From: an uncultured bacterium
Lineage (GTDB): Bacteria > Omnitrophota > Omnitrophia > Omnitrophales > Aquincolibacteriaceae
Assembly: GCA_964385615.1 (NCBI GenBank)
Contig: CAYLPP010000007.1
Span: 44,426 to 108,425, forward strand
Length of the DNA stretch: 64,000 nucleotides
Direction of reading: 5' to 3'
Every line of letters begins with the position of its first letter. The first letter of the stretch is position 1. Position numbers and translations under genes: made by a program. The notes below the pieces were generated by a model. It did not search any database. It had not been told where the DNA came from and saw only the letters and a list, made by a program, of their open reading frames with translations. Below, piece by piece: positions 6,892-31,700 of this stretch.

Positions 6892-6935
6892 GGGGGTGAA
6901 TTATAGCAAAAAAGCGGGGGCCGGCCTACCCTTAA

Positions 6936-11635: not shown

Positions 11636-14600
11636 TTAAGCGGACTGAGCCGCGCGGATTTCGGAGCGGTATTCTGTCGTCAGTTTTTTGACCAGATTCA
11701 GGAAGATAGCCAGATGTTTTTCGTCAAGAACCACGATCCGGCTTCCGTCCTGACGCACTTCAGGAAGCTGATTAACAAGACTGGTCGCCAGAAAACGAAC
11801 CATAAGAGGAAGGAATTGCGATTCCCCAACCACATTCACAAAATTTTCCTGAGCCTGAACAACGGTGTCCCCTTGTTCCCCGCCATTCTTAACGGCCAAG
11901 CGGGTTCCAACCAGAGTTTTCCGCGCATCGGGAGAAAAATTAACTTTAGACAATCGGTTTAAATCCACAGGCTGATCATTACGTGAACCTAAAGTAGCAA
12001 AAATCATCCGCATCAGCCCCGGAAGTTCTTTCGCGAAACCCATGGTTGTCTTTTCGCCCGGAGTCCCCACCGCGTAAGCTACCGCAATCGGATGCTCAGC
12101 CTCAAGGAGAACCTTCATGTAGTCCTCGTTGGCAAATGAAGCGTCAAGAACGTAACTGGTTTTACTATCCGGAGTAGCGCTCGCGAATAAATTCGCGGGC
12201 ATTTGAACGCCGTCAATCACAAGAGTACCTTTATTGGCCGTAAGAAGAGCCTGGTAACGGGTTTCAAGCTCCTTCTGATCAAGCGCGATAAATTGGGTCT
12301 GAGCTTCGGAATCGATCTGGATATTCTGCGCGGCCTGAGCCTGCTGAAGATTATAGCCAAGAATCACAGAGTTAATCACATACCGCTGAAGCTGGGCGGA
12401 AAATTTCTCCTGAAGACTTGAAGCAAAAGCCTGGCGAACTTGTTCATCGCTAAAAACCTGTTCCGCGAATGCGGATGTTAACCGGCCGATTTCCGCTTCA
12501 AATTCAGGGCTTAAAATAACCGCCGAAAGATTCTGCCCTTTTTCAACAGCCGTCCGAAGATAAGCAGAAATTCCATTTCGAATCTGTTCCTGCGCGGGTT
12601 TAATAACCGAGTCACGGCGCTGGGCTGAAATCGCGTCAAAAACCTGGCTGATTTGATTAAGGTCAGCATCACCGGAGAATTGACTCAACACCTGATTCGC
12701 GATATCCGCGATGGGGGCCAACGCGTCAATTCCCGTCGGCTGTTGAGCTGTTTCAAGAGGCGCAGTCACCGCGGCTTCCCTTTCCTGCGCCGTCGTCACA
12801 CTGATAACCGGAGCGACCGCGATAGGGGCTTCGGCAAGACGGACTTCAGACCGCGCGGGATACGCGGCGTTAAGTTTATCCAGATACTGCTGGCTTCTAT
12901 CTTTAAGATTGTTCTCTCCTAAAAATCCTGCCGGCGCGGAAGTTTCGATCCGCGCGTAAACCCGAACCGCTTCCTCGAAAAGTTTACGCGCTAAATCAAT
13001 AGTCGAAGCACTGCGTCCGGAAAGAACCGGCTTCAGATTATTTCCGTCACGCTCCACACCCGGTTGATTATTCAGAACCATCTGACTCGCCCAATCATAC
13101 AATTGATCCGCGATTTTCAGCTGAGCGTCCCAAGTGCCGGCCAAATTACTGTTGGGAGAAGTCAAACTTTGGAGAACAGGTTCTAAAGAACCCGCCGCGG
13201 TCCGGTTGAGCGATGGATTGTCCGATAGCGTAACCAGCCCTCCGGCAACATTTAAAACGGAATCTAAATTTAAAATCCCTACATCCCCGGTATTCCCAAC
13301 GCTGATCAGAGGAGCCGTAACCCGTTTCGCGGGCATTTGCAGCGGATCACTCGGCGTTATAGTGCGGACCACACCTTTAAACAGCTGATCACGCACCGAA
13401 ATCACAGGGGCGTATTGAGTCCCCACTTTAGCCAGGTACTGCTCACTGCGGGCCTGCAAATTATTATCGCCCAGGAAACCCGGTGAAATCGAGTTAATAA
13501 TCCCATAAGCCTGGACCGCGTTTGAAAAAAGGGTAAGCCCTAAATTTAGAATTTCGGATGGAAGATTTGGCTGAACCGCTTTCAGCCCGGAAGAATCGCG
13601 CGGAGCGTTATCATTAAGGAGCAGTGAGCCGGCTAAATCGTAAAGTCCATCCGCGGCTTTTAAAATGGCGGGCAATCCGCCGGCATAAGAACTGTTCGCG
13701 TCCAAAAGATCACTCACGATCACCGAAATATAACCTAAAGCCGAGCTCCTCACTTTCGCCACCCTTGCGGCATCGCCTTCAATATTGCCGGATTCCGCCG
13801 CGCGGGCAATAACAGCAAAATCCTTGAGCGCGAGAAGAATGACGTCAACATCTCCTATTTGAGTGGGAGCGCGCAAAGTCTTGGTGCCCGTTTTTCTAAC
13901 CGCGTGGTCGCGGGATGGATCAATCTGGCCAATCACCCCGCCATAAGAATTTTTTTCATAAACACGTTTAACGGCACTCGAAAGGAGTGATTCGGCGTTT
14001 TGAATTGAAACGCGTGTCTCTGAACGCGCGGCAACCGCGGTCAAATCCGCGCGAGTCTGAATGTTCTCTTGAGATTCAGGCTCGATTCTGATTTCCGCGC
14101 GGGCAGAGGCGGGATAGGCCGTTCGAATGGCAGCCGCGTATCCTTTAGCCTTTTCGAAAGCGCCGTAACCGGGCTGTCCCCGCTGCAGTTCAGCTCCGAG
14201 AGTAAAATCAAGACGGGCGATCTGATCAAAAAGATCCAAGGCAAAATCAACTCGATCCGCGGGTAGATTCGCCAAAACAACCCGGTTTTGATTCGCGTCG
14301 CGCGCTGTCGCGTCAAACATAAGCCGCAGAGCAAGATTATAGGAAGCCAGCACCGCTATTCCCTGACGCGGTACATTCGCAGGGTCCGTTAAAAGAAGTT
14401 CTTGAACTCCGCCAAAAAGATTCGTAAACGCATTACGCACCTGCGCCAACAGAGCGTCGGGAGAAAACCCGCGGGCCCGCAAATTTTCAAGCGCGACAAT
14501 CTGATTGATTAAATCGATGGATAAAATTCTTATTTCATCTGCTGAGAGAGCGCTGTATGAACCTCTCGCTCTACCGGCCTCAAGTGCCGTAAGGCGAGGA

Positions 14601-17600
14601 AGAATCCGCTGAAACCCATCATGAGCCGTAAGGAATTCTGCCGGAATAGCCAGAAAATCTCCCGCGGCATCTTCTCTTCCCGTTCTCACTTCAGACCGAG
14701 CAGCAGCCGCGGCGGCTGTATCCGACAGCTGAACAACGGAGATTTGTTTAACTTTCGCGCGCTTAAGCTCATTAAGAATCCGGGCAACATCCTTAATCAC
14801 CGCGAATCCGCGTTTATCTTTTTTAGGGTAATAAACCCGGCCATTCGCAACGATCGCGACTGTCTTTTTAAGCTCAGCCTCACTCTTCTTACTCATTGCC
14901 GGCAATTTAACATCCGTTTCATTCTCGACAACAGCGTTTAAGGCATTCAGCCTGATCTTCCCCCAGAGCACATACGTGACCCAGTCATCAAATGTAATAC
15001 CCGTTCCTTTTAATACCCCCCAACGAAGAACAGCGGCTGAGACCCCGATACCCGTCAAAAATGCCCCCAGCAAAACTAGAGCTGGTTTCAACAGAACGGT
15101 GGCACCCAACAAGCCAATAACCGTCAGGGTCAAACCCACCGCTAAAAGCACTAGTGAAAACAGCGAAACATATTTCACTAACACCGCGTAACCTGTATCC
15201 AGACTTTCCATGTAATCGTTCGCCGCCCGCAAAGAAACTCGGGCAAGCTTACGGTAAGTCGTTTCTTTCGCCGCTAAATCCTTCAATTGACGCGTGTCTC
15301 TCAGGATCGTTCCCTTCTGATCGGCTTTAAGATCAAGCGTGGTTTTCTCCGCGGACTCCAGCACACTCTTACGGAACGGAAGAGTCGCGAAGAACAGTTC
15401 AGAAAATGAATAAGGTGAATCCCCTTTGCGGAATTCAAAAACAATCATCATCGCCGGAACAGGCAAAAGAACCGCGGCGATAAGCAGTGCGACCGGAAAA
15501 ACCAGAGTCCAACCAAATAAAAACGCAGCGGCCAGATAAAGCGCGGAAAGCGCGAGAATCGCCAATGAAAGCCCCCGGGCGATCCAAACACCGGTTTTCT
15601 CATCCAGCTCAGTAAGATTCGCAAGGGTCGTTTTCTTTACCAGAGCGTCTTCCGCTTCGCTGGTTTCGTGATCCAGAATATGCCGGCCCCGATTCGCGAG
15701 TGCCCGTCCATTCACTCCGCCAAACTCGTCAGCGTCGCGGGTGTCCCGGCTAAAGCGGGCAGCGTCGGCGTTCGCTTTCGCGCGGTTAGTCTTTATCATG
15801 TCCTGGAGATAATTCGCCCAAATACCAAGTTTTGTTAATTTTTCAACATCCTCCGCATGCGAAGCCGGTAAATCGGCCCGATCAACCCCGGCGGCAGCTC
15901 TTTGAAGATGATGCCGCAGCGCTTCAACCGCGAACTGAAGACGCTCAACCCGGTCAAGCGTAATCTGGAGCGACCACTGAGCGTCATTCACATCCATCCC
16001 TTCACCATCCGCTCCGTAATCAATAAAAATATCCTGAACGTCGCTTTTCAGAGTTTCGTAATGAGTGGTCAGCACCGCCATAAGCGCGTCAAAGTTTCCA
16101 TTTTTTATGGCAGTATAAATTTCAAGCGGAGAAATCGGCTTTACGCTGGTTTTGGTTTTCTTGGTACGGGCTTCGGCGATCGCGGCTTTATTAGCCGCCG
16201 CCTGTTTCTCTTTAGCTTTAAGCGCCTTAATCAGGGCTTGGGTCGCGGCAGCAACATCACGGTCCCTTCCTTCACTTTCATTGGGAAACCTTGTGTCCGG
16301 TGAGGAAAAAGCCGGAAAAACGCCTTCCTGATAGGATTGAGCCGTGAAATGATCGTTCCCATATCCGGTACCGTCAACGCCGTCTAATTCTTCGGGAGTA
16401 TAAACCATTCCATCAACTTGAACGGGCGGCGCCGGCGCCGGCTCCCCAAACCCCGCTGATGAACGGGTTAATTCCCGATGGCGGAGGCGAAGCGCGTCAG
16501 TATTCATGGGCCTTGAAACCCCCGCGCGTATAATTTTCCGGGCTTGCGGATCTTGAAATAAAAGTTTGGCTTTTTCCGATCTTGAGCTCGTATCTCCAAT
16601 CGCCTTAGCGGCCTCAGTGACCAAGGTCAATAACTCAACCTGAAGATCATCCAGTTTGTCTTCGATACGCCCCAATTCTTTTTCCAGAGCTTTCTGCGAC
16701 TTTGGATTCGTAAAAAGGGCCGTGAGGTGCTCTTCCAGCGGAATCCGCTCCGGTCTGCCTTTCACGGGGATCCACGCGATCTTTCGATACTCCGGTGAAA
16801 CGTCGAGCAAATTATTATAAATCCCGAGAATTCTGCGGAGCTTGGATTTTAACGGCAAAGGGGTCGATTTCGCATCGAGCAACTCCTGAAGTTTTTGCTG
16901 AATCGCGTTCCCTTTAGGTTTCGCGGGCGCTTTTTTAGGAACTTTCGTCCCTCCGGCAGCGCTGGTTCCGCTCAATGGCGGAGGAGCGCCTCGAAAAGGA
17001 GGGGGCAAAACAGGTTCCGGCAGGTCCGGTAAATCGGACGGTGTGTCTCCCATTGAGCTTCCAACCGGCGTTTCCGCTCCGGTTAAATCCGGTTCAATAA
17101 CCGGCGCGGCTGTTAATTTCGCGGCACCTGTTTTAATTTTAGAAATAGCTGCTTTTAATTTTTTCGCTACGTCCGCAAAATGGTTGATTTTCCCAGTATC
17201 GGTTTTCCTACTAGCCCATCCCGAAATCACTTCATCCTCTTTAACATCAACAGCCCTAATGTTTGATAAATACTCGATATTCCCCTGAATCGCAGTCAAA
17301 GCGCCTATAAATCCAGACAGCGTTCCTTGGGTATTTAGACTATCTAAGGTTAATGCTGCGGGATCTATTTTTGAGAACTCGCGGTTCCCTTTTCCCAAAA
17401 TCCGGTCAAGAAAATTTGTAATAACAGCACTTGGCCCCCGAACAGCAACCACATCGCTGTTGTTCTTCGTTTTATCACCTGTCGTATACGCTTTTAGCAG
17501 TTTTTCGAGCGCGATAATCTCAACCATCACCTCACGGATGGCCATATCCCCGGCAACGATATCAAGACCCGGACGGGGAGCCGTGATCGCCCGGACTTCA

Positions 17601-19591
17601 GAACGGCTGGGGGTGAAAAGAGCCACGGTTCCGTCAGGACTTAATGAAGGAGGGATAGCGACCGCGGACGGCTGACCGGAAGAAACCCGCGCGTAGAGAT
17701 CTTTAATCTGAGGGAGATTCAGCTTTCCTCCGCTGGCCAATTCTTTAAAACCGCTCAAAAAAGCCTGGGATTTAATCTGAAATTTTTCAACCAGATCCGC
17801 GAGGGTTTCCTGGTTGAGTTTCTCGACTTCGTCATTGACCCCTTTAAGAATTTCGTCGTCATTTTTAACCGCGGCGTTAAAACCAAACCGGTCGGCGTAG
17901 TACCGGAAAAGCTGATCAATATACTTGGTATATTCTCCGCTCTTCTCGATCCTCCCCTGATTTGAAAGCTCGCGGATGACATCATCGCGCCAGGTCTTGA
18001 TATTCCGGCGGAAATCCGGCTCGCTCATTTCGCTGACCATTTTCAGCGAAGCGTCCTTCACGAAAGCGTCATAAAGGGTCGTTTTAAGGAACCGTTTGTA
18101 GGACAAATCCCCTTTCATCACGGGCGCGTAATTTTCGTGGCCTTCCAGGGAGTTCATTTTCGGCATGATCACCGCGTAGGAATAATGGCGCTCTCTCAAA
18201 CGCTGTTCAAAACCTTCCGCGTGAAAACCGCCGGTCAGCACGATCACACCCTTGGTTTTTTCCCGGTCCATAACCTTTTCGATCCGATCAAGGAAAACCG
18301 AGTCACGCTCCATCGCCAGTTTGTAAAACTTAAGAGCCGGCGCTAAATCCGGAAAGACACTTCCCGCGAGACTCTGAAAAGACGCTTCGTCGGCGCTGTA
18401 TTCATTAAACTGTTCACGAGTCCATTCGAGGCGCGTCAGGTCGGTTAAAACCCTCAACCGGTGATAGCGGACTGAAAGGTCTTTTTGTTCCGGGGTTTTG
18501 GCAAATTCATTTTCATAATCCGTCAAAAGCGTTTCAAGTTCTTCAAAAAGCTTGGTGCCTTTTATCATGCCGAGAGTTTCCGTCTGGCCAAGCAGTTCGC
18601 GAAGCCTGGGGGTAAGCTTGGGAGTGATATTAATTTTCTTTCCGGAATCGACCAGGTATTTCAGGAAAGTTCCCGCGTCAATCTGCCCGGTCACAAAGGT
18701 CTGATATTTCTCGTTAAATTCTTTCATATCACCGGAGGTCAGTTTGCCTTCGATCTTGGTCTTCAGGTGGTCAGCCATCCGGCGGAGCGTGACTTCAATA
18801 TTTTCATCCTGGAGCCGGTCTTCGGAAACCGCCGCTTTAAACACCGGGAAGAGATGAGGGAAACGGTTTTCAGTCAGCCGGGAACCTTGGGGGTCAAGAG
18901 TCTGAAGGAACTTCATTAGTTTAAAGAGATCCAGCTTCTCATCACGGAAAGCGGTGACTTTTTCATGAAAAGCATTAAATTCCGGCGAATAGACCGACTT
19001 CCGCTCGCGGTCAAAACCATCGCTCATTCCCTGAAAAGCCTTCAGAAGTTTTTCTTCCAAAGCGTCCGCCTGAAGGTAAGCGTCGTGATTTTCCTGATAC
19101 AGCCCCCACTGCTCCAGGCCGACATAGGTGGCCGGCATGGGGCTGAAAATCGCGGCCATTTCAGAACCGCTCAACTCCCCTTTCGCGGCGTATTCCGCGA
19201 GCACTTTCTTTTTAACGAATTCATCCGGGAAAGTTTTAAAAAGAAGCGGATCAAGATTGCTTTGCGTGCCTTCCACAGCGACAAAGCGGATGTTGAACTG
19301 CTGTTGAAAAAACTCGATCAGGGCCTGCATATTTTTCTGAGCGTCAACAATGGCGTGCGCGTCCTGAATATAAATGACAAAACGGTCGGAAGAATCCGAA
19401 TGAGAAAATTCCTGAAGGGTTCCGAGTTCCGCGGGAAAAGTCATCTTGTCGGGAATTCGGACTTCGGTGGACGTTAAATTAGAAGGACGGGCAACAGTAA
19501 CGGCGGGCTCAGCGGACACCGTTGATCCGGAAAAGCAGACCAACGTCGCCAGCGCGATTGACTTGAAATATAAGTTTTTTTTGATCTCCAT
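11636..19591 (-). CDS. Giant secreted/membrane protein of unknown function (~2,650 aa): signal peptide, TraB/GumN-like N-domain, Pro-rich linker, 4 TM helices, duplicated C-terminal module
   Basis: ORF track 11636..19606 uses a GTG start. The ATG at 19591 gives a classic Sec signal peptide MEIKKNLYFKSIALATLVCFSGSTVSA|EP. No in-frame stop for about 8 kb. Protein-like features are listed in separate entries below. Confidence 0.8.
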   Translation of the reverse strand: MEIKKNLYFKSIALATLVCFSGSTVSAEPAVTVARPSNLTSTEVRIPDKMTFPAELGTLQEFSHSDSSDRFVIYIQDAHAIVDAQKNMQALIEFFQQQFNIRFVAVEGTQSNLDPLLFKTFPDEFVKKKVLAEYAAKGELSGSEMAAIFSPMPATYVGLEQWGLYQENHDAYLQADALEEKLLKAFQGMSDGFDRERKSVYSPEFNAFHEKVTAFRDEKLDLFKLMKFLQTLDPQGSRLTENRFPHLFPVFKAAVSEDRLQDENIEVTLRRMADHLKTKIEGKLTSGDMKEFNEKYQTFVTGQIDAGTFLKYLVDSGKKINITPKLTPRLRELLGQTETLGMIKGTKLFEELETLLTDYENEFAKTPEQKDLSVRYHRLRVLTDLTRLEWTREQFNEYSADEASFQSLAGSVFPDLAPALKFYKLAMERDSVFLDRIEKVMDREKTKGVIVLTGGFHAEGFEQRLRERHYSYAVIMPKMNSLEGHENYAPVMKGDLSYKRFLKTTLYDAFVKDASLKMVSEMSEPDFRRNIKTWRDDVIRELSNQGRIEKSGEYTKYIDQLFRYYADRFGFNAAVKNDDEILKGVNDEVEKLNQETLADLVEKFQIKSQAFLSGFKELASGGKLNLPQIKDLYARVSSGQPSAVAIPPSLSPDGTVALFTPSRSEVRAITAPRPGLDIVAGDMAIREVMVEIIALEKLLKAYTTGDKTKNNSDVVAVRGPSAVITNFLDRILGKGNREFSKIDPAALTLDSLNTQGTLSGFIGALTAIQGNIEYLSNIRAVDVKEDEVISGWASRKTDTGKINHFADVAKKLKAAISKIKTGAAKLTAAPVIEPDLTGAETPVGSSMGDTPSDLPDLPEPVLPPPFRGAPPPLSGTSAAGGTKVPKKAPAKPKGNAIQQKLQELLDAKSTPLPLKSKLRRILGIYNNLLDVSPEYRKIAWIPVKGRPERIPLEEHLTALFTNPKSQKALEKELGRIEDKLDDLQVELLTLVTEAAKAIGDTSSRSEKAKLLFQDPQARKIIRAGVSRPMNTDALRLRHRELTRSSAGFGEPAPAPPVQVDGMVYTPEELDGVDGTGYGNDHFTAQSYQEGVFPAFSSPDTRFPNESEGRDRDVAAATQALIKALKAKEKQAAANKAAIAEARTKKTKTSVKPISPLEIYTAIKNGNFDALMAVLTTHYETLKSDVQDIFIDYGADGEGMDVNDAQWSLQITLDRVERLQFAVEALRHHLQRAAAGVDRADLPASHAEDVEKLTKLGIWANYLQDMIKTNRAKANADAARFSRDTRDADEFGGVNGRALANRGRHILDHETSEAEDALVKKTTLANLTELDEKTGVWIARGLSLAILALSALYLAAAFLFGWTLVFPVALLIAAVLLPVPAMMIVFEFRKGDSPYSFSELFFATLPFRKSVLESAEKTTLDLKADQKGTILRDTRQLKDLAAKETTYRKLARVSLRAANDYMESLDTGYAVLVKYVSLFSLVLLAVGLTLTVIGLLGATVLLKPALVLLGAFLTGIGVSAAVLRWGVLKGTGITFDDWVTYVLWGKIRLNALNAVVENETDVKLPAMSKKSEAELKKTVAIVANGRVYYPKKDKRGFAVIKDVARILNELKRAKVKQISVVQLSDTAAAAAARSEVRTGREDAAGDFLAIPAEFLTAHDGFQRILPRLTALEAGRARGSYSALSADEIRILSIDLINQIVALENLRARGFSPDALLAQVRNAFTNLFGGVQELLLTDPANVPRQGIAVLASYNLALRLMFDATARDANQNRVVLANLPADRVDFALDLFDQIARLDFTLGAELQRGQPGYGAFEKAKGYAAAIRTAYPASARAEIRIEPESQENIQTRADLTAVAARSETRVSIQNAESLLSSAVKRVYEKNSYGGVIGQIDPSRDHAVRKTGTKTLRAPTQIGDVDVILLALKDFAVIARAAESGNIEGDAARVAKVRSSALGYISVIVSDLLDANSSYAGGLPAILKAADGLYDLAGSLLLNDNAPRDSSGLKAVQPNLPSEILNLGLTLFSNAVQAYGIINSISPGFLGDNNLQARSEQYLAKVGTQYAPVISVRDQLFKGVVRTITPSDPLQMPAKRVTAPLISVGNTGDVGILNLDSVLNVAGGLVTLSDNPSLNRTAAGSLEPVLQSLTSPNSNLAGTWDAQLKIADQLYDWASQMVLNNQPGVERDGNNLKPVLSGRSASTIDLARKLFEEAVRVYARIETSAPAGFLGENNLKDRSQQYLDKLNAAYPARSEVRLAEAPIAVAPVISVTTAQEREAAVTAPLETAQQPTGIDALAPIADIANQVLSQFSGDADLNQISQVFDAISAQRRDSVIKPAQEQIRNGISAYLRTAVEKGQNLSAVILSPEFEAEIGRLTSAFAEQVFSDEQVRQAFASSLQEKFSAQLQRYVINSVILGYNLQQAQAAQNIQIDSEAQTQFIALDQKELETRYQALLTANKGTLVIDGVQMPANLFASATPDSKTSYVLDASFANEDYMKVLLEAEHPIAVAYAVGTPGEKTTMGFAKELPGLMRMIFATLGSRNDQPVDLNRLSKVNFSPDARKTLVGTRLAVKNGGEQGDTVVQAQENFVNVVGESQFLPLMVRFLATSLVNQLPEVRQDGSRIVVLDEKHLAIFLNLVKKLTTEYRSEIRAAQSA
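12780..13710 (-). repeat. Internal tandem duplication (~185-aa module x2) in the C-terminal part of the 2,650-aa protein
   Basis: Copy 1 …SSYAGGLPAILKAADGLYDLAGSLLLNDNAPRDSSGLKAVQPNLPSEILNLGLTLFSNAVQAYGIINSISPGFLGDNNLQARSEQYLAKVGTQYAP…. Copy 2 …NSNLAGTWDAQLKIADQLYDWASQMVLNNQPGVERDGNNLKPVLSGRSASTIDLARKLFEEAVRVYARIETSAPAGFLGENNLKDRSQQYLDKLNAAYP…. Confidence 0.75.
15000..15600 (-). other. Two TM hairpins (4 helices) in the middle of the 2,650-aa protein
   Basis: GVWIARGLSLAILALSALYLAAAFLFGWTLVFPVALLIAAVLLPVPAMMIVFEF (15430-15600) and VSLFSLVLLAVGLTLTVIGLLGATVLLKPALVLLGAFLTGIGVSAAVL (15010-15180). Confidence 0.7.
18150..19400 (-). other. TraB/GumN/Tiki-like domain candidate at the N-terminus of the 2,650-aa protein
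   Basis: After the signal peptide: …RFVIYIQDAHAIVDAQKNMQALIEFFQQQFNIRFVAVEGTQ…. About 380 aa later: …KGVIVLTGGFHAEGF…. This gives an early (D/E)…H / VEG block and a late G-G-x-H block, which is the general layout of TraB/PrgY/GumN-family domains. Confidence 0.3.
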
Positions 19592-19749
19592 AGAATCGCC
19601 GTCCACAGCCCTTTATTAAAGGCTTTTATAAAGGTGACTCTAGAAGTATAGCACCCTCTATAGGAATTTTCTAATGACAGGTAGGGCTGTGGAAGGAATG
19701 CTAGTTCTTACTAGAGAATGCTACTTTCCCCTAGGGAGCAATACCAGGC
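19592..19749. promoter_or_regulatory. Palindrome-rich, AT-richer spacer between the two giant genes (candidate promoter/RNA structure)
   Basis: An 11-bp perfect inverted repeat, tccacagccct (19602-19612) / agggctgtgga (19683-19693). Smaller palindromes tatag-N6-ctata (19647-19663), ctagt-N4-actag (19701-19714) and ccctaggg (19729-19736). On the coding strand, TAGAAA-N17-TATACT precedes the RBS region. No U-tract after the giant-gene stop. Confidence 0.3.
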
Positions 19750-22700
19750 TTAGGCGGAAATCTTGGCTTTTTGCTCAGCCAGAGCGGTCATAAGGGCTTT
19801 GACGATATTGTTTTTCAGGAACAGGTCATCCGCGTCATAACCTTCGGAAGTCATCCGAACCTCAACGAATTTTTCAAACTGCTCACGGCCTAAGACCGCC
19901 GCTAACAGACCCACCTCACCCAGTTTTTCTGTGTTGGAAACTGGGCGGTTTTCAGGCGTCTGGATTTCAGCTTTCCCGTAAACAAAGACCGTCGCCCCGC
20001 GGGAAGCCAGGAATTCCGTCAGACTCTGAGCTTTAGAATCTCCGGCGCGGATATAGAAAACCAGATGGCCGGCGGCTTTGCCAACCTGACGATGCAGAAG
20101 GTCAAAGGTTTGCGTTTCAAAATTTTCCAGATTCTCGATTGACTGAATGCCCGGAGCGTTCTGGAAATCCTTCGAAGCTTCAGAACCCAGAGCCACGCGG
20201 CGGAACTGGCCGACCATCGTGCGAATCTCAAGCAACGCCGAGCCGGACTGGAATCCCTCAAGAATATCGATGGATTTCAGTTTCAAGAATCGGGCAACGT
20301 CATACGGCTTACCGACGGTTCCGACAAGCTGTTGGGCAAGCTCGCGTTCGTTAACCGCCGTGAATTGCAGGAGCATACGGCCGATAGCAATCCGATCCGC
20401 GTAAGTTTTATTCACATCATGGGCATCGAGAATTTCCTGGATGCGGACGGTTTCTTCCCAGGCTTCCGTTTCGTTGCTCAGGCGGAGGCTGTCTTTCAGC
20501 CGGCCTTTCTCGTTCTGTTCAATATGAATACGTTCATGCCCCACGGTCACGATCAGATCGTTGAGCATACGGGCGAAGTACACAAGCTCTTCAGGCTGGA
20601 CATCTTCAATCGCCGGGCTGAATCCCGCGGCAAAGCCGTTGAGAAGTTTCTGTTTGTTAACCACGATGCTTCCGGTCTGCGGATCCGCGTAACCGAAATG
20701 ATTCTGCAGCGCGGCGTCAGAGGCCTCATCTCCCAAGAGCAAGGCGCCTTTTTCTTTGTAGGCCGCAAGCATATCGTAGTTCTGAAGAAGCCCGAACGCC
20801 TGAGCCCGGCGGGTCGCGGCCTGGAGCATCACTTCAATCGAGTTACCGCCTGAGCGCCATGACAGAACGCTTTCGGCCAGAATTCTCAAGCTTTCATCCG
20901 TTTCAAGACTGAAATCAGGAATGGCTTTCAGTTTCGCGATCAGGGATTTCAATTCAGCGCTCTCAACTCTTGATTCAGAACGCGCGGAAACTTCCACGGC
21001 CGGTTCTTCGGCGGTATTACGCGCGAATTCCGCGTCACGCTCAATGCGTTCAATCATCGCGCGGAGGTCTTCAACCGAAATACTGCGGGCGGAAAGTCCG
21101 GCTTCGAGCTGCGCCGTGAATGAATCCTGAACAGGGCTGTCAAGAGCCGCGACAACCTGATTCAGGAAAGCCAGCGCGGTCGCGATGTTTTTGAAGTCTT
21201 CTTTGGTTTTCGCTCCGGCAATTTCCCAACGGCGGGTCGCGTCCAGAATCTTTTTGACGAACTGATAGAAAATCCAGACCTTATCGACCACGTCGGAGTC
21301 CACTTCCTTCACTTTCGGAGCCAGATCCGCGAGCGGGCCCATATCCCGCAGGATTTTGCATTGAACCAGGAAGCATGAGCTGCAAGAATTCAGCAGGCCT
21401 TTGAAAACTTTATTATTGAGCTGAATGCCCGACTGATTCAGAGCATCCAGAAGTTCGGCACGGCCTTCGTTATAATCGGCTCCTTTGACCACGCCCTGAC
21501 CTTGACCATCTTCCACGAACAGCGTGCTGAGAACCTGCTCAAGTTCACTCCGGCGAGGAGGCGTCGTGGAGCGGATCAGGCGGGCAAGCCCGCTGACGTA
21601 ATTGCGTTTCACATCGCTGGAATCGCCGGCGGACGGCACTTCAGGAATCCGGATTTCAGAGCGAGCGGAACCATCTTCGCCCTGCTGAGCGCGGGCTTCC
21701 ATCATTTTCCGCAATTCCTTAAACTGATTAGCCTCCTCTTCAGCGGGATTCGCCGGAGGTTTCGGGCTCGTCAGCGCTTTGCGAAGTTCTTTCTCCGGAA
21801 GGTTACTCTTCGCGCTCTTCTTCATGAGATTCTGCGCGGCGGATTCCGGAGCGTATTCAAGAATGGTATAGGTGTCATCACTTTCGTTATAAAGAACAAC
21901 CTGCATACGCACCTTACCGCCCAAACGGTCGTAGTAAGGTCCAAGCACCTGGCCCAGCTGTTCCGGGAACGACTTATACGGATCAATTTCCGTGTGCGCG
22001 AACGCGAGAATTTCCGCTTCGTCCGGTGTGATCGGCGCGGCCGGATTTCCCGCCGCGTCAAATTTCACGGGATTTCCATCCGCGTCCAGGAAACGGACCA
22101 TCTGAGCATTGCGCTTCACATCCGCGGAAGCTCCGGCGGGAAGGCCCAGGGCTTCAAAATCACGGGCTTTCACGACCGACGCGCGGGTCACAGAACCATT
22201 TTCCGCCACCGTATAAGCCACGGCTCCCTGCCCGGCTTTCCAGGAAACCGCCGGCATACCGTCGGTGAACGACGACGGCGTAGGATCATTTTCAGGGTGG
22301 AAATGCAAACCCCGGTAAGTGTTGGAACCGACAAACTCAACACGGTCTTTGGTCGAACCCTGGAAGGAAATGAAAATCTTGCCTCCCTTTTTAATCTGAG
22401 TAATGGCCGTTTCATAACCGACAACCTGCAGGCGTTTAAGAAGCTTCTGGCCTTTCTCAGATTTAAGAAGCTCATCAAAAGCATATCCGGCCGTGACATC
22501 AGCGGCCAGATCAATACCCGTTTCCGCCAAGTCCAGTTCAAGGAAAACTTTTCCGTCTTTACGCGCCTGATCCAGGAATTCCGCCGTCACGTCATCAACC
22601 TTCACGGAAGTTTTTCCGTACCGTCCGTTAGCCTTAAGTTTAGCCAGAATGTACTCGCTTCCGGCGCGGTAACCGGCCGGCATCTCCAAATTCTCGCCGT

Positions 22701-25700
22701 CATCCACACGCTCAAGGAAGGCGGCTAATACCGAGGCCCGCTGAAGGTACATATCGGTTGAAAGAAGTTCCGTGAGACCGTCCAAATCTTTTTGGGCTTT
22801 TGCCTTCACGTCAGTATCCGCAGAACTTAAATCATTTCCAGCCAGTTCCATCAAACGGCGGACCAGATCCTTAATCAAGCGTTCACCCGCGTAGAAGTCC
22901 TTAGAGAACGCCGTGGATTCCGTCATGGGATAAGCCATCTGCAGACGTTCCAGGTAACGTTTAAGCGCGTCAGGATTCCCGCGGAATTTTTCAACATTCA
23001 GCTGCGCCCAGTCAAAGCGCGCTTCGCCATCAGCATCTTTCTTTTCTTCCTCGATTTCCAATTTCCGCTGAATAGTCAAATCATTACGCGCGCCGAATTT
23101 AGCCTTAAGCTGATCCTGAGCGGCTTTCTTTTCAGCTTCGACTCTGGCTTTCTCTTCGTCAGATCCGGTAAAAAGCGGTTTTGCGAGAGTCTGCAGAAGA
23201 CCTTCCAGTTCCACTCGCTCATCCGCGGTCAGTTTCGCTTCATCAAAACCATATTGGAGCGAAGCGCCAAGCACGAGCGAGCGGATATTCAACGCCGTTA
23301 TTTCAGCCTGCAGGGCGTCAATGGCCGGCATAATCTGTTCATTGATTTCCTTCGCCTTCTCAGCGCGCGCTTCGCGGTTCTTTTGAATCAGTCCAGGCGC
23401 GACCACGGAAGGATCATCCGTTTCCGGTCCGTTTAATTCGATCCTTCTCAGTAAAATCGCCGCCGTGAGATCTTCACGGTTCATCGTTACCATCTTTTGA
23501 AGGCGGGCAATTTCAGCATTCAGCTTGGCGAGCATTACCGGGTCTTTTATTGCCCCAACTTGCGCAGTCAACTGTGTCAAATAAGCGCTAATGGCGCCTT
23601 TGATTGTATCCACAATTTCCGGCCGGTTGATGGTACTAAGCGCCGTGGCAACATTGTTCAGCCACTCCAATTCACCTTTTAACTGTTCATGTTCCGCGTC
23701 CAGGTCTTCAGCAGAAGCCGCCGCTTCTCTCAAACGCGTCCGAAGAGGCTTCATCTTATCTTTTAGCTCTTTTTCTTTCGCGGTGATAGTTTCGGGACGG
23801 CCTTCCACAATAGCTTTCCCTTTCAAAGCGGTCTGCATTCTCTTGAAAACTTCAGCGCGCTTTTTAGCAATGCTGAGTGTTTCATCATTTTGAGCGATCT
23901 GGCTCTTAATCAATTTCGCGCGGTTCGCTTTTTGAGCCGCAGTCAACTCCAGGTTAGAATCAAGATTTCTTAACGCTGCCTCCAACTGCTGTTTGCGCTT
24001 TTGCAGCCGGTCAATCGTTCCCGCGCTGGAAGCCCCGTGAGTCTGGAACACAGACGCGCCCAGGAACCGCATCGCGCGGTAAACAACCGCGTGGGCGTAA
24101 GCCGCGGGATTTGTTTTGCGCAATTCTTCAAGCTCGTCTTTAACGTCTTCCGGCAGGAAGTTCACTAAAGTTCCCGCGATCTGATCAAACGGAGCCAGCA
24201 GTTCCTGCGTGCGGGCTTCAGAACGGGCGGAAGGGCTCATAGCCTCAAGCTCATCCAGGCCGTCAAGCGCGGATTCAAGCGCGTCAGCAATCTGATCGGC
24301 CATCTTGTCACCGTCATTCTTGCCGGTTTGAGTACGGTTAAGAACCGCCCGTCCGGCGCCGTTCAAAACTCTCTCTTCAAGGGTCACGCGGTTTCCAAGA
24401 AGTTCATCTTCCGTATCCGTCCAGGAAGTAAACTGCCACAGAACGCCCATCATGTAATTTTCCACGTAGTTCAGAACATTTTCCTGAGCTTGAGCGACTT
24501 CGTCCAAGGTCGGCCGGGTATGAGCGACTTCCAGGAGATCCAGAAGTTCCGCGGCGGCTCCGTCAGAAAGAGCCGGTTCATCCTTGGGCTTCCCGGTCTT
24601 TTCATCCAGATTTTCTTTCTGCTTGTTCTTGACCACATTGCGCGCGGCTTCGATATTGCCGTCTTCAACCGCGCGGAGGAAATCGAAGTACCAGGTAAAC
24701 ACGTTCACCTTCGAGAAATAATCATTCAGGATATGAAGCACATCTCCCATCAAGCGGAACCGCTGTTTCTGAAGGACCATAATTTCATTCAGCAGGTTTT
24801 TCTTCTCCGCTTCCGTCATCTCTTCTCCTTCAGCCAGCTTCCGATAAACTTCGATCCTGGCCCGCAGATCCGCCAGTTTATCCTGGGCTTTGGCCGCATC
24901 GGAAGGCGTCAGGAGACCGGAATCGATACCACGCTGAACGTTTTCAGCTTCCGCCGTCAGGTCGAGCTGTTTCTGCCTCATGTCGGCTTTATCTTCATCC
25001 GTGAGCTTGCCTTTGGCCGCGCGGCGAAGCACTCCGAGGCGGGCATTATTTTCCTCGAGAGCGGCACGGTTCTGGAGCCATTTCTGAACCGGGTTTTCAC
25101 GGACAATATCCATGTTGGCCGTATTGCGGTAGAACCGGATCTTTTCGCGGAAGGTTTCACCCAGCTGAACCGCGCCCCAGCGGTAACCTTCGAACGTCGC
25201 CTGAAGCTCGCTGTCATTAAGAGTCTGCATATACGCTGAAGCCACGAACTCAGCAAAGAAGTCACGGAAAATCTGGCCCTGGTAATCCGAACCCTTCGCG
25301 CCTTCCCCGTTACGGCTTCCGCCCAGATCGTTCCAATTCATGATCTGTTCCAGACGTTCCGCTTCAGCCTTCAATTTTTCAATTTTTTCTTTATCCTTAA
25401 CCGGGTCAAGCCCGTTGATTTCCTGACGGATTTTCTGGACCATGGTCTGAGTGAATTCCTTGTCATGATCGTCAATAATACTTTCCGTCGCTTCGTGCAG
25501 GAAGAACTGGCGGATCACGGCCTTGGCGGATTCGGCCGGATTGGTCCACTTGCCCGACCGGCGCAGGTGGTTCATCGTAACGAACAGGCTCTTGCTGAAG
25601 AACATCTTCTGTTTGCCCTCATTCCAGTACGCGTGCGTGTCGGCTTCCGGATCAATTCCAAATTCCATTTCACCGATGCGGCGGCCGATCTTGGCCATAA

Positions 25701-28700
25701 TGTCCGCCGGATAACCCGCGTCTTTCATCTCCTGCGGAAGATTTTCATAGCTGAGTTTGTCCACGATATCCGAGCGGACTTCCTCAATTGTTTCAGTGCT
25801 GACGCCAAGCCCGTACACAAATTCCATATCCGCGATGAACCGGCCCAGGCTGGGAGCGGCTTCAAAAGCCTTATCAAGATACCGATTCGCGGCTTCAAGC
25901 GCGTTCGCGTTCGCGCGGCGGACGCTTTCAGCCGTCAGATCCGCCTGAAGAATCCAGAATTCTTTGCCATTTTCATCGATCGCCGGCAGGCTTCCGTCAC
26001 CCCATGAGGTCGACGAATCTTGAATCATGATCGCCAGAGTTTCATCATCCATCCCGGCCAGATGCGCGTCAACCTTGGGCGAGGAAAACGAGGGAACCGG
26101 TCTACGGCTATTGAGCGCGTCCATAGCCTTATGAATGAAGACACGGCCTAAGGCGAGTTTCAGCGAGCGGACAAGGTCCGCTTTATCTTCCGAATGAGCC
26201 CGAACTCCCATCGCTTTTCTAATCAGGACGTCATAGGCGTCTTCCGGGTTATCCTGCATCCCGTCAATACCTTCCGTTTTCATGAACTGATAAAGCTCAG
26301 CGGCGTTGTTTAAACCATAAATAGGCATCAATCCCCCAAAGTTGATCAGGAGACGGGCCTGCGTAAAATCAATATCCGTTGTCCGGCCGAATTGACCGGC
26401 GAAGAACACCAGCATCTGTTCATTGATCCACGGGAATTCCTCAGCAAGTTTCGCGAGCTCCAGATCCGAAACCGTTCTGAAAGAACCGTCCGGATTGCGG
26501 AGCTTATCACGCAGATACGACGCGGCTTTACCGGCCGTTTTCATCTGTTCCAGATTCATGCCCGCGAAAGTCTCGGCGGGAATCTGCGACAGCATCGGTT
26601 CATCCGGAATTCCCGGATCCAGCATTTTGGCGATTTCGAGTTCCTTACCCGTAAAGCCGTGATCCGCGGCCAGCTTTTGAAGATTCCGTCCGGTCAGCTC
26701 ACCCAATTTCAAGCCGTCGGTCAATTTTTCAGTTTCACGCGCCAAAGCGTAATATCTCTTCAGCTTATCTCCAAGATCAGCACCGAAGAATTCAACAAAA
26801 AGACCATCCATAAAACCTTCGCCGACGCGGTCGAGATCTTCCTTCAGCTTTTTGGCTTTTGCCTGAATTTCAGCTTTCTTTTTCGGATTCTGATTCTCAG
26901 GCTTCTTGAACTCTTCATTGAGATCCGCGATGTCTTTCTTGTATTTTTCATAGGCATCCGTGCGCATTTTGACAAAGGCCGCGCCATCCGCTTTTTCGGT
27001 GAAGCCGGCAAGCTTGATCAGCATCTCATCGCTCATACCCGGAATCGCGGCCTGGAGCGCGCCGAGAACCTTCGCAAGGGCTTTATCCCCGCGGCCCGCG
27101 TTGGTCTTGGCCAACTGAGCCACACGGGCTTCAAGAGCCGCGCGGAGAAGGCTATTCGGAACAAACCCGCGGAAGAACGTATTCTGCTGGAGACCGATCA
27201 GCCAGCGTCCGACCGTAGCCGGCGTTTGAGCCAGACGAACCTTTTCACGAAGCTTTTCAAGCTCCGCTTTCTTAGCCGGAAGTTCCGGGCTCTTCTGCTT
27301 TTCAAGATCCGCGACTTCTTTCTGGAGATCTTCCGTGCGCAGTGCGTCAATCTTCGCCCGGAGTTCTTTAGCCGCCGGCGTATCTTCCTGTTTCTTTTCA
27401 ACAAACTCTGTCTGATAACGTTCACTCAGATGCTTCTGATGCTCCTTATAATCGTAAGCACCATCACTGTTGATCAGTTTCTTCAAACCGAAAATACCCA
27501 CCCCGATAGCGAGACCTAATAGGGCCCAGCCGGAGAGAACCCCCGCGAATGCCAACCCAATTCCAAGAACCGGCAGAGCCACGGCGGCCGCGAAACCTAA
27601 TTTCCGATTCACGGACCAAAGCTTTTCAATTCCCAGCCCGATTACCGCCCCAAGCGCGCCATAGGTCATTCCGACAAAAGTCATGGTAATCATACCGGCG
27701 ATACTAAAAACAGACGTCTTCTGGAAGAAGGCCTTGGTTGTCTCCCAGGTGCTCGCGCTCTTTTTAAGCGGTTTCGCGTGTTCATCTCCGAGCACGAAGC
27801 GCAGGAGTTTCGCGGCACCCGTAATGAGGCCCCAGCCGGTCGGAAGATTGATAATCATCATCGCTATTTTCTGGGTTAAGGGAACTCTTCCGACGGCAGC
27901 GTTATAAGCCTTCCAAACCAAGTTTTTGTCAGCAGGTTTCAATTCATCAATAATCACCGGCTGCTGAAGTTTTTTGAGTTCTTCGGCGGTTTTGAAGAGC
28001 TCTTCAACCGTCATGCGGCTGAAAACTCTTTCACCGAGCCCCTGGCGAATCACCTGCAGACTGTCCATCATTTTCTGAATCTGCTGAAGACCGGCCTGCG
28101 GGTGGAAGGCCATCAGACGTTCCACAAAAACCTGCCGGTGAACTTCGTTAGTGAACGGATCAAAAGCAGGATTGTCAGCCCTGAAAGTATCCAAAATATT
28201 CTCAACGGAATCCGCGCGGCGCGCGACGAAAAGGTTCAGCACCGTTCCAATAACCGGCATGGCGTAAATCGCTCCGCCGCGGATCTTCTCAACCATCGCG
28301 GGAATTCCCTGAGTGACCATCGGCATCCAGCGGGACCGGGCAACCACCGCCGCGACCACACCCACCGCCGGAAGCGCGACTAAAAGAGCCGCGGTGAAAC
28401 TAACCGCGACGACCGCGGCCGCAACCGCCGCTGCAGCGGCGGAAAGCCCCACAATAGCACCCGCAATGGTCCAGCCGTCAGTCTGCGTCATCGGTTTGGT
28501 TTCATCAAAAGTGCCCCAGGCAAACGCGTGGAACTGATATTTCAGATAGGAATAACTGGTCACGCGCACCCAAAGTGCGTTGAAGGTCTGCTTGAAATTA
28601 GTCAGATTCTGCCAGACCCCCTGCATGAAACCTGAGAATCCCCGGCCAAGCACGGGATATTTGAAGAAGCCTTTCTTGAATTCAAGGACTTCATTCTTGT

Positions 28701-31700
28701 GCAATTCCATCTCATTGAGCTGGCGGGCACGGGCAGACTGCACTTTGGCCATCTCGCGCTGAGCCGCCGCGTCCTTCCAATGTTTCTGGAAGGTTGTAGT
28801 CACGCTGTTGTAAAAAACGCGATCCCGATGATCATCTGAAAGCAGGTAAGCCCGATTCTGGCGGGCGAAATAAGCGCCCAAGTCAGCCTGGAAGCTGTTG
28901 GAATTCAGGAGCAATGAAAGATCCGTCTGATCAAACCGGGGAGGAAGCCCGATAGAAGTCTGAGTTCCCTGGAAGCTCTGCGCGCGGGACAGCAGGCCGT
29001 TCATCGCGCTCACGGCCGGTGAAGCCAAACCATAACGGCCGGCCGCCGAACAGGACTCGCAGCCTTTTCCATAAAGGGCTTCCACCGCGCGGCGGAGCCG
29101 GTAGCTCATCTGCTGAGACTGTCCGACAGCTTTCATCACTTCGGCCGCTCTGCGGGAATTGGCGGCATGCGTTTCCGCGGTTTCAGTGCCGAGGCGCTGA
29201 TCGCGCTGAGCCGCCGCGAGGTTATAGCTGAGCACGTTAAGCACCGCGTTGTAAGCGGACTGTTCATCCGTGATCGTAAATCCGGTCAGCTGAGTTGAAG
29301 GCGGAAGTCTTCTTCCCCCGCCGAGTGCAACCTGAATATCTTCCATATCTCTTCTCTGATCAAAACCACGGCTCATCTGGGTCACTTCGCCGATCGAAAG
29401 AAGACGCTGAGCAAGATCTCCGGCGCCGTCACCGTCAAAATGGCCTTGTCTTTCAAGATGCAGGGCCGCGGCGATGACCGCTTTACGGATATCATCCTGA
29501 GTCGAAGACGCCGCGTTCACGTTAAAGGCGGAATTGCCGGTAGCCTCATAAAGGGCCTGCAGACCGCTCATCAGATTGGCGGAATAAATGCTTCCTGAAA
29601 GCATGGCCGTAACGAAGCGGTACATGTTGTAGCCCTTCTGGGTCGCGTAGCGGTCGCCGATCACGCCGATCCGCTTGAGCTGGCCCACAAAACCTTCCGC
29701 CTGGGCGCCCAGATTGGAGCTATTGCTCAAATCATCCGCGATCTTTTCAGGATTATTCAAAAGGTTAGCCAGACTCGCGCTGCTCTGCTCTCTCTTTTCC
29801 GTGGAGAGACGGCGGGTTTCACGCGTCGTCAAAATATATTCGCCAAACAGAACCGCCGTCTGCACAAACTGAATCAACAGAGGATTGCGGGTCTGATTGC
29901 CGGAAGTGCGGGCATAAGAGAACGCGCCGTCTTCATAGCCTTCGGATTTCTTGATATTTTCAAGACGGAAAAGACCGTTTCCGGATTCCAGCGCGGATTC
30001 AACGCTAAACACTTCTTCCGCGTTGAACGCTTCAAAAATATCCGCTTTTGAAATCCCCGCCTGCTCCAGTTTGGCCTGCAGAGTCAAAGTGGTCGTACGG
30101 CTTCCGTCGCCCATCTTACTTCCAAAAATCTCATTGATGATATTGCGCACTTCACCGCGGACGAATTCATCCCCCGTCACGCCCTTCTTTCCGCGGGTGA
30201 TTTCGGTATCATTAATTTTGCCTTCTTCCATGTCCGCGATAATTTTGCGGAGCGCGTCAGCCTTGGGCCCATTCTTGGCGTTCTTCTCAAGCAATTTCAC
30301 CAGATTCTTGGTAATCATTTCGTCACGCAGAAGCGTGGTCACGGCAAAGCGCGCGGCATTGGACTGCAGGCTGGCTTCCCGGAATTCAAAGTTCAAAGTC
30401 ATGAGGTCGAGAAGGTTCGGCGCGTTATCCGTCAGGATGGTTTCCTTGCCGGCGATCGCCGTTTCATAGATCTGATTGAATTCTTCGTCAAATCCCTTAT
30501 TGCGGTCCGCTTTGAACAGACGCTCAACCAATTTAATCATATTCTTGATATCCACAACCCGCTGACGGTACAGACTCACGATATTCTGCTGTTCGGGAAC
30601 CGTGGACTGGCCATAAATCTTTTCCGCGGTCGCGGCCTGCGCTTCCGCGTCTTCAAGACGGCGTTCCAGGGTCGTTTTAAAGCTGTCATAGCCGACATCT
30701 CCCGCGGCTTCGCGCAGGCTTTCACGAAGTTTTACCTTATCGGCAAAGAGACGGATCTGACCGCTGTTACTACGGTCACGGCCGAGGGTCTGAGCGATCA
30801 GGCTGGATTCAAACAATGAAATTCCGATACCGATGACATGAGTCGCCACGTCTATTTTTCCGCCGTCCGCGGTATTATCCAGTACGTTCAAACGTTTCAA
30901 GTCGAAGGCTTGGGCGATACGCCGGCTTCCAATCACGATCTGACGTTTACCGCTTCCTGACTTAGCAATCGTGGTGACTTCTTCCGCGCTGCTTCCCAGC
31001 TGGACTTTATTCAGATTAAAGGTTTCGCTCTGACCAGCTTCATCCAAAGCCAATTCTTCGCGAACCGCGCGCTCCACTAATTCCTGCTGTTTCACGCTGT
31101 CCGTGATGAAAACAAAGTTACCGTCACCCTTTTCTCCGCGCAGGATTTCACGAACCGCTTTGCGCATGGTCGTCACAAAGCTTCTTTCACCCGCCGCCGT
31201 TGAGGTATCCATCAGCGTATCGACCTGGAGACGGCCCTTGGAGCGCAGGTAGCGCAAATCCGCCTGACTCTGACCTAACTCAACACGCTCATTGCCGGTG
31301 AAAAGCTTGATGAAATCAGGAAGGGTCGCGGAAACCGCCACAACCCCCTGCATAAACATACGCTGAATCGGAGACCCAATCTTGGTTTCAAGACGTCCGA
31401 TCGTGTCCAGATCGTACCAGGTACGGATTTTGGCCATATCCAGAGAGTTCATCTCCATTTTGCCTTCCGCGGTGAACTTGACACCTTCCATCAGGGTGCC
31501 CGCGTCCACCTGAACACCATCCACGTCCGAGGGTTTGTTGCTCCGATGCGTCCGGCCTTTTTCAGATTCATAGAAGCGGAGCTTGGCAGCCAGATCCGCG
31601 TTGTCACCCACCCGGCGGCCGCCCTTTTCGCCGACCATACGGCGCAAGAAGCTGAAGGTAAAAGCGATTTGAAGCGCGATATCTCCGGACTGCTGATCTT

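Follow-up and report, generated by a model that had tools for sequence, protein, structure and literature searches.

The window analysed here is a 64,000-nucleotide stretch of contig CAYLPP010000007.1, assembled from an uncultured bacterium of the phylum Omnitrophota, and the gene under study encodes on its minus strand a protein of 2,651 amino acids (aa) located directly downstream of a co-oriented giant gene. In silico analysis revealed that this protein belongs to a very large and undescribed family, restricted to Omnitrophota in the scans made, which comprises long modular proteins (0.5-8 kaa, i.e., thousand aa) with constant ends and a variable middle. The constant N-terminal part is a hydrolase-like domain (N-domain), a conserved domain closes the C-terminus, and the modules in between are punctuated by a short recurrent pentapeptide. 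This motif pattern provides a candidate rule for the subdivision of the long proteins of Omnitrophota, and by analogy the long bacterial proteins of this family may be cut in the manner of viral polyproteins.

The 2,651-aa protein contains six copies of the pentapeptide R[SA]E[VIT]R (starting at aa 663, 1632, 1831, 1856, 2247, and 2642), where 0.04 would be expected, and none of 20,000 shuffled sequences reached six. As in its relatives, the motif recurs between modules. In 75 relatives retrieved by database search it was found 276 times in 246,006 aa. Across the relatives P0002-P0195 its form is R[SA]E[VILM]R. In the loci fetched for comparison its density per 1,000 aa was 1.26 in open reading frames (ORFs) carrying the N-domain vs. 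0.016 in ordinary ORFs of 400-1,000 aa, i.e., an approximately 80-fold enrichment. The flanks of the motif are not conserved, except for small residues preceding it. In the relatives it is situated outside the Pfam domains and brackets them, the first copy commonly lies right after the N-domain across many members, and breakpoints of homology coincide with it, both in the comparison with the orthologues P0003 and P0004 and in the C-terminal module of the upstream giants. R[SA]E[VILM]R can be regarded as a candidate cleavage or recognition site. A role of the motif as a nucleotide-level signal was rejected, since its synonymous codons vary freely and selection therefore acts on the peptide. A cut just before the first Arg of the motif, leaving an -[AS]A end, was likewise rejected, because Ala is found at position -1 in only ~22% of the sites. 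The motif strings were also looked up across the literature library, and the papers retrieved were all unrelated.

The RSEVR-type motif is absent from 40 of 195 family members, and about 20 of these carry the pentapeptide [GA][AS]S[LM]G (0.76 vs. 0.05 per 1,000 aa). The two types, RSEVR and GASLG, exclude each other, and a single type is used across the long paralogues of a genome, as expected for a co-evolving recognition site. Carriers of [GA][AS]S[LM]G are P0090, P0117, P0121, and P0106, as well as the loci L010, L012, L014, L037, and L045.

The N-domain displays the characteristics of a known hydrolase superfamily at the level of structure and active site. In an alignment of 31 sequences, residues H79, E107, G158/E160, Y165, F422/Y423, R429, G454/G455/H457, and P477 were invariant (residue numbers of the N-domain equal the alignment numbering plus 27). 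The polar residues D77, H79, E107, E160, R429, and H457 read "DHEERH" in 182 of 195 members, with conservative substitutions in the remainder, and this six-residue constellation is retained although the overall identity of the members is only 20-65%. The AlphaFold2 model calculated from the 31-sequence alignment is confident (pLDDT 87.4, pTM 0.78) and consists of an alpha/beta core with a helical insertion of ~285 residues, and it contains the parallel central beta-sheet between helices by which the superfamily fold is defined. According to the structural study of RRSP, the catalytic 2His/2Glu residues of the superfamily correspond to E3900, H3902, E3930, and H4030, while the pair in Bcr135 is H85/E113 (PMC6254334). 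The spacings of D77-x-H79 and E107 in the N-domain (H-2 and H+28) are those of RRSP and Bcr135, and H457 provides the second His. The sequence of the N-domain thus contains the catalytic 2His/2Glu pattern of the Tiki/TraB/Ere/ChaN superfamily, the first acid being Asp and not Glu.

A first-pass annotation of this DNA, made from the sequence alone, had already described the N-domain as TraB/GumN/Tiki-like on account of the motifs IQDAHA, VAVEG, and GGFHAEG. All three are indeed present and fall on invariant columns of the family, and the predicted fold together with the invariant [D/E]-x-H...E...H pattern agrees with that description, but profile methods do not. The Pfam families TraB_PrgY_gumN (PF01963) and Cofac_haem_bdg (PF04187) did not reach the gathering threshold in scans of the full protein or of the members. 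The sub-threshold Pfam matches of the individual members cluster on the ChaN (5/31 and 4/23) and TraB (3/31 and 2/23) families, with best E-values of 0.004-0.03. Comparison of the core profile with E. coli YbaP of the TraB family by hhalign was not significant (probability 0.65%), no match to the N-domain model was obtained in the PDB with Foldseek at E <= 0.001, and HMMER profiles of the whole N-domain or its core matched no PDB sequence. Similarity to TraB/GumN (PF01963) by profile, proposed in the annotation as a check, was consequently not borne out. Since fold and site pattern agree while the profiles stay sub-threshold, we place the N-domain in the Tiki superfamily and not in Pfam TraB_PrgY_gumN, an assignment that seems very probable.

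Concerning the extent of the family, a search of 1.84 billion cluster representatives with the N-domain profile yielded 10,048 matches at E <= 0.001, of which 7,048 at E <= 1e-30. Among the best 150 matches listed, the N-domain begins at about residue 30-50 in nearly all, and protein length varies from 536 to 7,984 aa. A scan of one genome per species retrieved 45 loci, all from Omnitrophota metagenome-assembled genomes (MAGs) with the exception of a 1.2-kb contig labelled Pacearchaeota, which is mis-binned. Genomes contain many paralogues of the family. The named sequences among the 75 relatives also originate from Omnitrophota MAGs; only their first ~560-660 residues are common to all, and at least 56 of the 75 possess a signal peptide-like N-terminus. 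The 2,651-aa protein follows the same plan, with a signal peptide preceding a domain of ~560-630 aa. In the relatives the N-domain is followed by methyltransferase, FHA, metallophosphatase, GNAT, kinase, HATPase, glycosyltransferase, glycolytic enzyme, sigma-70, or SecA modules, while the middle and C-terminal modules of the 2,651-aa protein are common only to P0002-P0004 among the 75. Complete sigma-70 (regions 2-4), SecA motor, glycolytic, methyltransferase, and phosphatase modules behind signal peptides were observed in P0068 (aa 828-1050 and 2610-3144), P0051, and P0012, where motifs flank every module on both sides; functions of a cytoplasmic type thus occur in proteins predicted to be exported.

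The opposite end of the family proteins is also conserved. Iterative searching identified a domain of ~215 aa aligned to the extreme C-terminus in at least 30 members, including the 2,651-aa protein, in which it was detected by hmmsearch with an E-value of 7.6e-74 over aa 2445-2651 and ends in -QSA. The model of this domain is of moderate quality (pLDDT 71.8) and matches generic Rossmann-like folds only, and conserved polar residues are absent from it. The tail -[ASM]A is found in 152 of 195 members, and in the loci -[AS]A terminates 27 of 31 long ORFs vs. 5 of 407 ordinary ORFs. The -[AS]A-COOH tail follows an amphipathic helix, its codons being located at 11639-11644 (minus strand) in the gene under study and at 19753-19758 (minus strand) in the giant gene. 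It could act as a sorting, PDZ-binding, or protease-recognition signal. The possibility that the giant shares the family C-terminal domain was rejected, as the domain was not detected in the giant and only the -SA ending is common to both.

We tentatively propose, at somewhat less than even odds in our own estimate, that the N-domain is a site-specific endopeptidase, as are the Tiki-family enzymes RRSP and Tiki, that the punctuation motifs are its cleavage sites, and that the protein is processed after export. The polyprotein would then be cut into about six pieces, and the activity of the N-domain may in addition free the 637-aa C-terminal module of the giant, which starts at RSEIR. Extended to the whole family, the proposal would state that thousands of long Omnitrophota proteins are true polyproteins, in which an N-terminal Tiki-type peptidase cuts at RSEVR/GASLG sites following Sec export. 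Their modules, such as methyltransferases, kinases, glycolytic enzymes, and sigma-factor-like or SecA-like proteins, would be freed outside the cytoplasm or into prey, the C-terminal domain and the -[AS]A tail would act as a shared mark for handling or sorting, and the same sites would represent the cleavage points of the giants. In this general form we find the proposal rather doubtful.

Several observations weigh against the proposed processing. The assignment of its fold is weakly supported at the sequence level, and the Tiki superfamily also includes esterases (Ere) and non-enzymes (ChaN, PMT C1/C2). Certain members, e.g., P0051, P0054, and P0055, have an intact site but neither motif, and the motif is also encountered in long ORFs whose N-termini lie outside view. 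The modules of the relatives are normally cytoplasmic (sigma-70, SecA, kinases) and fit poorly with export, while the HExxH of the giant's C-terminal module constitutes a rival candidate protease. Furthermore, a linker motif that recurs could serve for binding or be recognised by another enzyme.

The relationship with the upstream gene has to be considered in this context, as the first-pass annotation regarded the 2,651-aa protein as a functional partner of the megaprotein. The stop codon of the giant ORF is at 19750-19752, leaving a gap of 143 bp (to the GTG) or 158 bp (to the ATG) to the gene under study. The giant frame is devoid of stop codons up to the edge of the window (63988-64000, minus strand); any count of its length, whether 14,745 aa or 14,749 codons, is thus a minimum, and the N-terminus of the giant, which is located beyond the window, could carry the same Tiki-like cap. 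The conserved C-terminal module of the giant starts exactly at its sole RSEIR (21649-21663, minus strand) and exhibits 54-56% identity to the giants of three orthologous loci, the preceding sequence being unrelated. With a P of about 0.16, one motif in a protein of 14,749 aa or more does not by itself reach significance. The module contains an invariant HExxH (20524-20538, minus strand) in the form GHERxH, followed by NETEAWEE, which gives it a gluzincin-like look, and one of the four modules shows a weak match to the DUF6782 metallopeptidase family (E 0.028). Two metagenome scans with the module found nothing.

The 2,651-aa protein could accordingly be viewed as a dedicated accessory or processing factor, protease or esterase, that is made with the megaprotein and acts on it. 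The gene and its three close orthologues each follow a very long gene of the same orientation at a distance of 158-240 bp (174-240 bp for P0002, P0003, and P0004, where the long gene is cut by the contig end), the giants of this orthogroup share only their last ~637 aa, beginning exactly at RSE[IV]R, there is no terminator-like site between the two genes, and the hydrolase-type site of the N-domain is intact. However, this synteny, which holds in 4/4 of the close orthologous loci, is not found in most of 30 other loci: a very long gene is directly upstream in three of them, nearby in two more, and divergent in one, and it is absent for P0014. The partnership thus finds support in the adjacency within the close orthogroup and not in the family as a whole, which has members in the thousands, several of them as paralogues in a single genome, with ~24 of 30 loci and P0014 away from giant genes. 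Where a long gene adjoins a family gene, it is often itself a member of the family, as a tandem paralogue. In addition, six motifs in the 2,651-aa protein stand against one in the giant, which is 14,749 aa long or more, and the promoter-like element conserved between the two genes suggests that they are transcribed separately. We consider a dedicated accessory role unlikely.

Another explanation is that the N-domain hydrolyses a non-protein substrate, as an Ere-like esterase for compounds of the envelope or of prey surfaces that is carried on a membrane-anchored stalk, in which case the motifs would be read by another protease, e.g., the HExxH module of the giant, or by a secretion or assembly factor. 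The presence of the motif in long ORFs without a visible N-domain would be in line with this, a genome-uniform motif type also fits a single trans-acting factor, and the neighbouring giant offers a candidate in its module with the invariant HExxH and the weak DUF6782 match. Yet the motif is ~80-fold enriched in proteins with the N-domain, its first copy usually stands directly after that domain, and no candidate trans factor was identified family-wide, so that this explanation too has a low likelihood in our opinion. Finally, it is highly improbable that the two terminal domains are caps devoid of catalytic function that help to export, fold, or anchor very long polypeptides, with the motifs as structural linkers in an uncut chain: the C-terminal domain, with generic fold matches only and no conserved polar residues, would suit such a role, but a polar constellation kept in 182/195 members at 20-65% identity would hardly be expected unless it catalyses a reaction or binds metal, and a five-residue motif with unconserved flanks and two exclusive genome-specific variants is untypical of a structural element.

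Among known systems, the closest to the N-domain is the Tiki/TraB/PrgY/GumN/ChaN/erythromycin-esterase superfamily (PF01963, PF04187, PF05139). The structures compared (2qgm, 2rad, 2g5g, 6xcq, 5t09, and 8bqs_DQ) comprise two Ere-like "succinoglycan biosynthesis" proteins (2qgm and 2rad), the effector HopBA1, a TraB-family protein, ChaN, and EreC. The N-domain differs from this superfamily in lacking a significant profile match, in the splitting of its core by the ~285-aa helical insertion, and in being fused, after a signal peptide, to variable modules that run to thousands of residues. RRSP is a sequence-specific endopeptidase of the Tiki family that resides within an autoprocessed multi-effector toxin (PMC6254334). 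In these MARTX toxins the cutter is a cysteine protease domain (CPD) and RRSP (DUF5) is cargo, whereas in the present family a Tiki-like domain forms the constant cap at the N-terminus. RTX or glycine-rich repeats and the inositol-hexakisphosphate-activated CPD had no Pfam or NCBIfam match in the 2,651-aa protein, and its processing is a prediction only. The proteins of this family resemble viral polyproteins in having one long ORF, a short degenerate motif with small flanking residues at module bounds, and a protease-like domain in the chain; unlike these, the 2,651-aa protein is cellular and predicted to be exported and membrane-anchored, and its cleavage is hypothetical.

As for the giant proteins of Omnitrophota, their cleavage has been proposed to occur via C39/S8 peptidase domains, the cleavage points being stated as unknown, and the missing cleavage points blocked structure-based analysis (West-Roberts et al., 2023, 10.1101/2023.11.21.568195). 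The 2,651-aa protein shares with the giant and long proteins the phylum and the topology class of signal peptide plus transmembrane (TM) helices, and its gene adjoins that of a giant. At 2,651 aa and with no Pfam match to C39/S8 peptidase domains it is not itself a giant in the sense of West-Roberts et al., while its upstream neighbour is. The Pfam content of the relatives (methyltransferase, HATPase, GNAT, HAD, starch synthase, GT1) equals that of the long proteins in a 2026 Omnitrophota preprint (10.64898/2026.06.07.730766). In a search by terms, neither West-Roberts et al. nor this preprint was found to mention a TraB/Tiki/GumN domain, the search terms not being aimed at the C-terminal domain or the [AS]A tail.

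Omnitrophota are noted for the longest predicted proteins, and the question is whether these are single chains or are cut, and where. For a family of 10,048 representatives we can now offer a set of rules, namely a Tiki-type cap, a boundary motif of two genome-specific types, and a C-terminal domain and tail shared by the members. Should the motifs be cleavage sites, both long and giant proteins could be divided computationally into modules for structure prediction, and processing could be tested with synthetic peptides and existing metaproteomes. The cytoplasmic-type enzymes behind signal peptides would also gain a concrete hypothesis, as exported or delivered cargo. Even if cleavage proves wrong, a very large new branch of the Tiki superfamily that caps long modular proteins and has no Pfam model merits description.

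The features of the gene and its surroundings are compiled in Table 1. The minus-strand ORF (11636-19606) has 2,656 codons with a GTG start at 19606, while the first ATG, at 19591, results in a 2,651-aa product identical in length and sequence to the public protein P0001. It is a real coding gene; an assembly or gene-calling artefact was ruled out because four orthologues from independent assemblies share the full architecture. Scans of the full protein against Pfam and NCBIfam gave no meaningful match. The signal peptide, MEIKKNLYFKSIALATLVCFSGSTVSA followed by EP, was assigned by rule and not by SignalP or another predictor, on the basis of a basic n-region, a hydrophobic core of 10-12 residues, and V-S-A at positions -3 to -1. 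The Pro-rich linker at aa 855-875 reads PDLPEPVLPPPFRGAPPPLSG, and the two TM hairpins amount to four hydrophobic helices by hydropathy. In these respects our results agree with the first-pass annotation, which had listed the signal peptide, the linker, and both hairpins. The 2,651-aa protein is hence predicted to be Sec-exported and anchored in the inner membrane by the two hairpins, and all its large parts would be non-cytoplasmic if the signal peptide is used. The same annotation made no mention of the punctuation motif, the C-terminal domain and tail of the family, or the family size, which are the most informative features as regards mechanism, and it placed a duplicated module at the C-terminus. 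Pairwise BLASTP supports the duplication (aa 1950-2067 vs. 2131-2251, 39% identity over 121 aa, E 3e-22) but not its terminal position, as the second copy is followed by a separate region of ~400 aa (aa 2252-2651), the last ~210 aa of which (2445-2651) form the conserved C-terminal domain.

Table 1. Location of the features of the 2,651-aa protein gene, the intergenic region, and the upstream giant gene (window coordinates).
Feature	Position	Strand	Basis or remark
CDS of the 2,651-aa protein	11636..19591	-	ATG 19591; stop 11636-11638; alternative GTG 19606; identical to P0001
Predicted Sec-type signal peptide, aa 1-27 (STVSA / EP)	19511..19591	-	Rule-based reading of sequence; similar N-termini in relatives
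N-terminal Tiki/TraB/Ere-superfamily-like hydrolase domain, aa 28-662	17606..19510	-	Fold and active-site pattern
D77-A-H79 (IQDAHA), first catalytic-type motif	19355..19363	-	Invariant or near-invariant; matches RRSP E3900-x-H3902
E107 (VAVEG), 28 residues past H79	19271..19273	-	Invariant; spacing as Bcr135 H85/E113 and RRSP H3902/E3930
All-helical insertion of ~285 aa splitting the alpha/beta core, aa 162-444	18260..19108	-	Secondary structure of model
H457 (GGFHAEG), second catalytic-type His	18221..18223	-	Invariant
Motif 1 RSEVR, aa 663-667, at N-domain end	17591..17605	-	Pattern match
Pro-rich linker, aa 855-875	16967..17029	-	Sequence
TM hairpin 1, aa 1333-1385	15437..15595	-	Hydropathy; module shared and duplicated in P0003/P0004
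TM hairpin 2, aa 1477-1522	15026..15163	-	Hydropathy
Motif 2 RSEVR, aa 1632-1636	14684..14698	-	BLAST homology segments to P0003/P0004 stop here
Motif 3 RAEIR, aa 1831-1835	14087..14101	-	Pattern match
Motif 4 RSETR, aa 1856-1860	14012..14026	-	Pattern match
Internal repeat copy 1, aa 1950-2067	13391..13744	-	Pairwise BLASTP, 39% identity, E 3e-22
Internal repeat copy 2, aa 2131-2251, motif 5 at its end	12839..13201	-	Pairwise BLASTP
Motif 5 RSEVR, end of repeat copy 2	12839..12853	-	Pattern match
Family-wide C-terminal domain (Rossmann-like alpha/beta and long terminal helix), aa 2445-2651, tail -QSA	11639..12259	-	hmmsearch, model
Motif 6 RSEIR, within C-terminal domain	11654..11668	-	Pattern match
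Extended -10-like element TGcTATACT	19645..19653	-	Three orthologous loci have it as TGCTATAAT
11-mer CTTTATAAAAG, following the -10-like element	19623..19633	-	Invariant in four loci
Direct repeat of TAGCATTC (two copies, 20 bp apart) preceding the -10-like element	19696..19723	-	Partly conserved in orthologous loci
Giant gene in the same orientation, 14,749 codons or more	19750..64000	-	~30 TM helices; almost no Pfam matches
Conserved C-terminal module of the giant, last 637 aa, tail -ISA	19753..21663	-	Homology to orthologous giants

The two genes had initially been described as co-oriented, 143 bp apart, and not separated by a terminator, all of which stands, and no terminator-like sites were found in the intergenic region. 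Co-transcription is less well supported in view of an extended -10-like element that is conserved as a TGnTATAAT-type form across four loci. Due to this conservation the gene under study probably has its own promoter, and the intergenic segment 19623-19723 probably represents this promoter together with an operator.

With respect to the giant itself, its 14.7 kaa contain almost nothing recognized by Pfam, apart from one sub-threshold PDZ-like stretch (ORF aa 236-290). A dense block of ~27 predicted TM helices is located at ~39,940-43,210 (minus strand, aa 6926-8015), and three further TM helices at 27,430-28,430 (minus strand, aa 11854-12172). Downstream of the gene under study, at 4836-11507 (minus strand), the window encodes an HTH_17/receiver regulator, a CHASE-PAS hybrid histidine kinase, a MiaB-like radical SAM enzyme, and YjeF_N. 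In the orthologous locus L051 (21982-24074), MiaB-like and YjeF_N genes are also found directly downstream while the two-component genes are missing, and the latter are therefore probably outside the unit.

Two further observations concern other members of the family. The family gene of locus L027 (9809-14146) looks split, and an overlapping ORF of 1,326 aa starting at 14047 carries the family C-terminal domain and five motifs, which probably reflects a frameshift or an assembly error in that MAG. In the P0012-like orthogroup, a transaldolase/phosphoglucose-isomerase fusion of 961-968 aa is encoded ~2.5-5 kb upstream (L018, L025, L028-L031, L034, and L044), and a small KTSC-domain protein is encoded directly upstream in L003 and L018.

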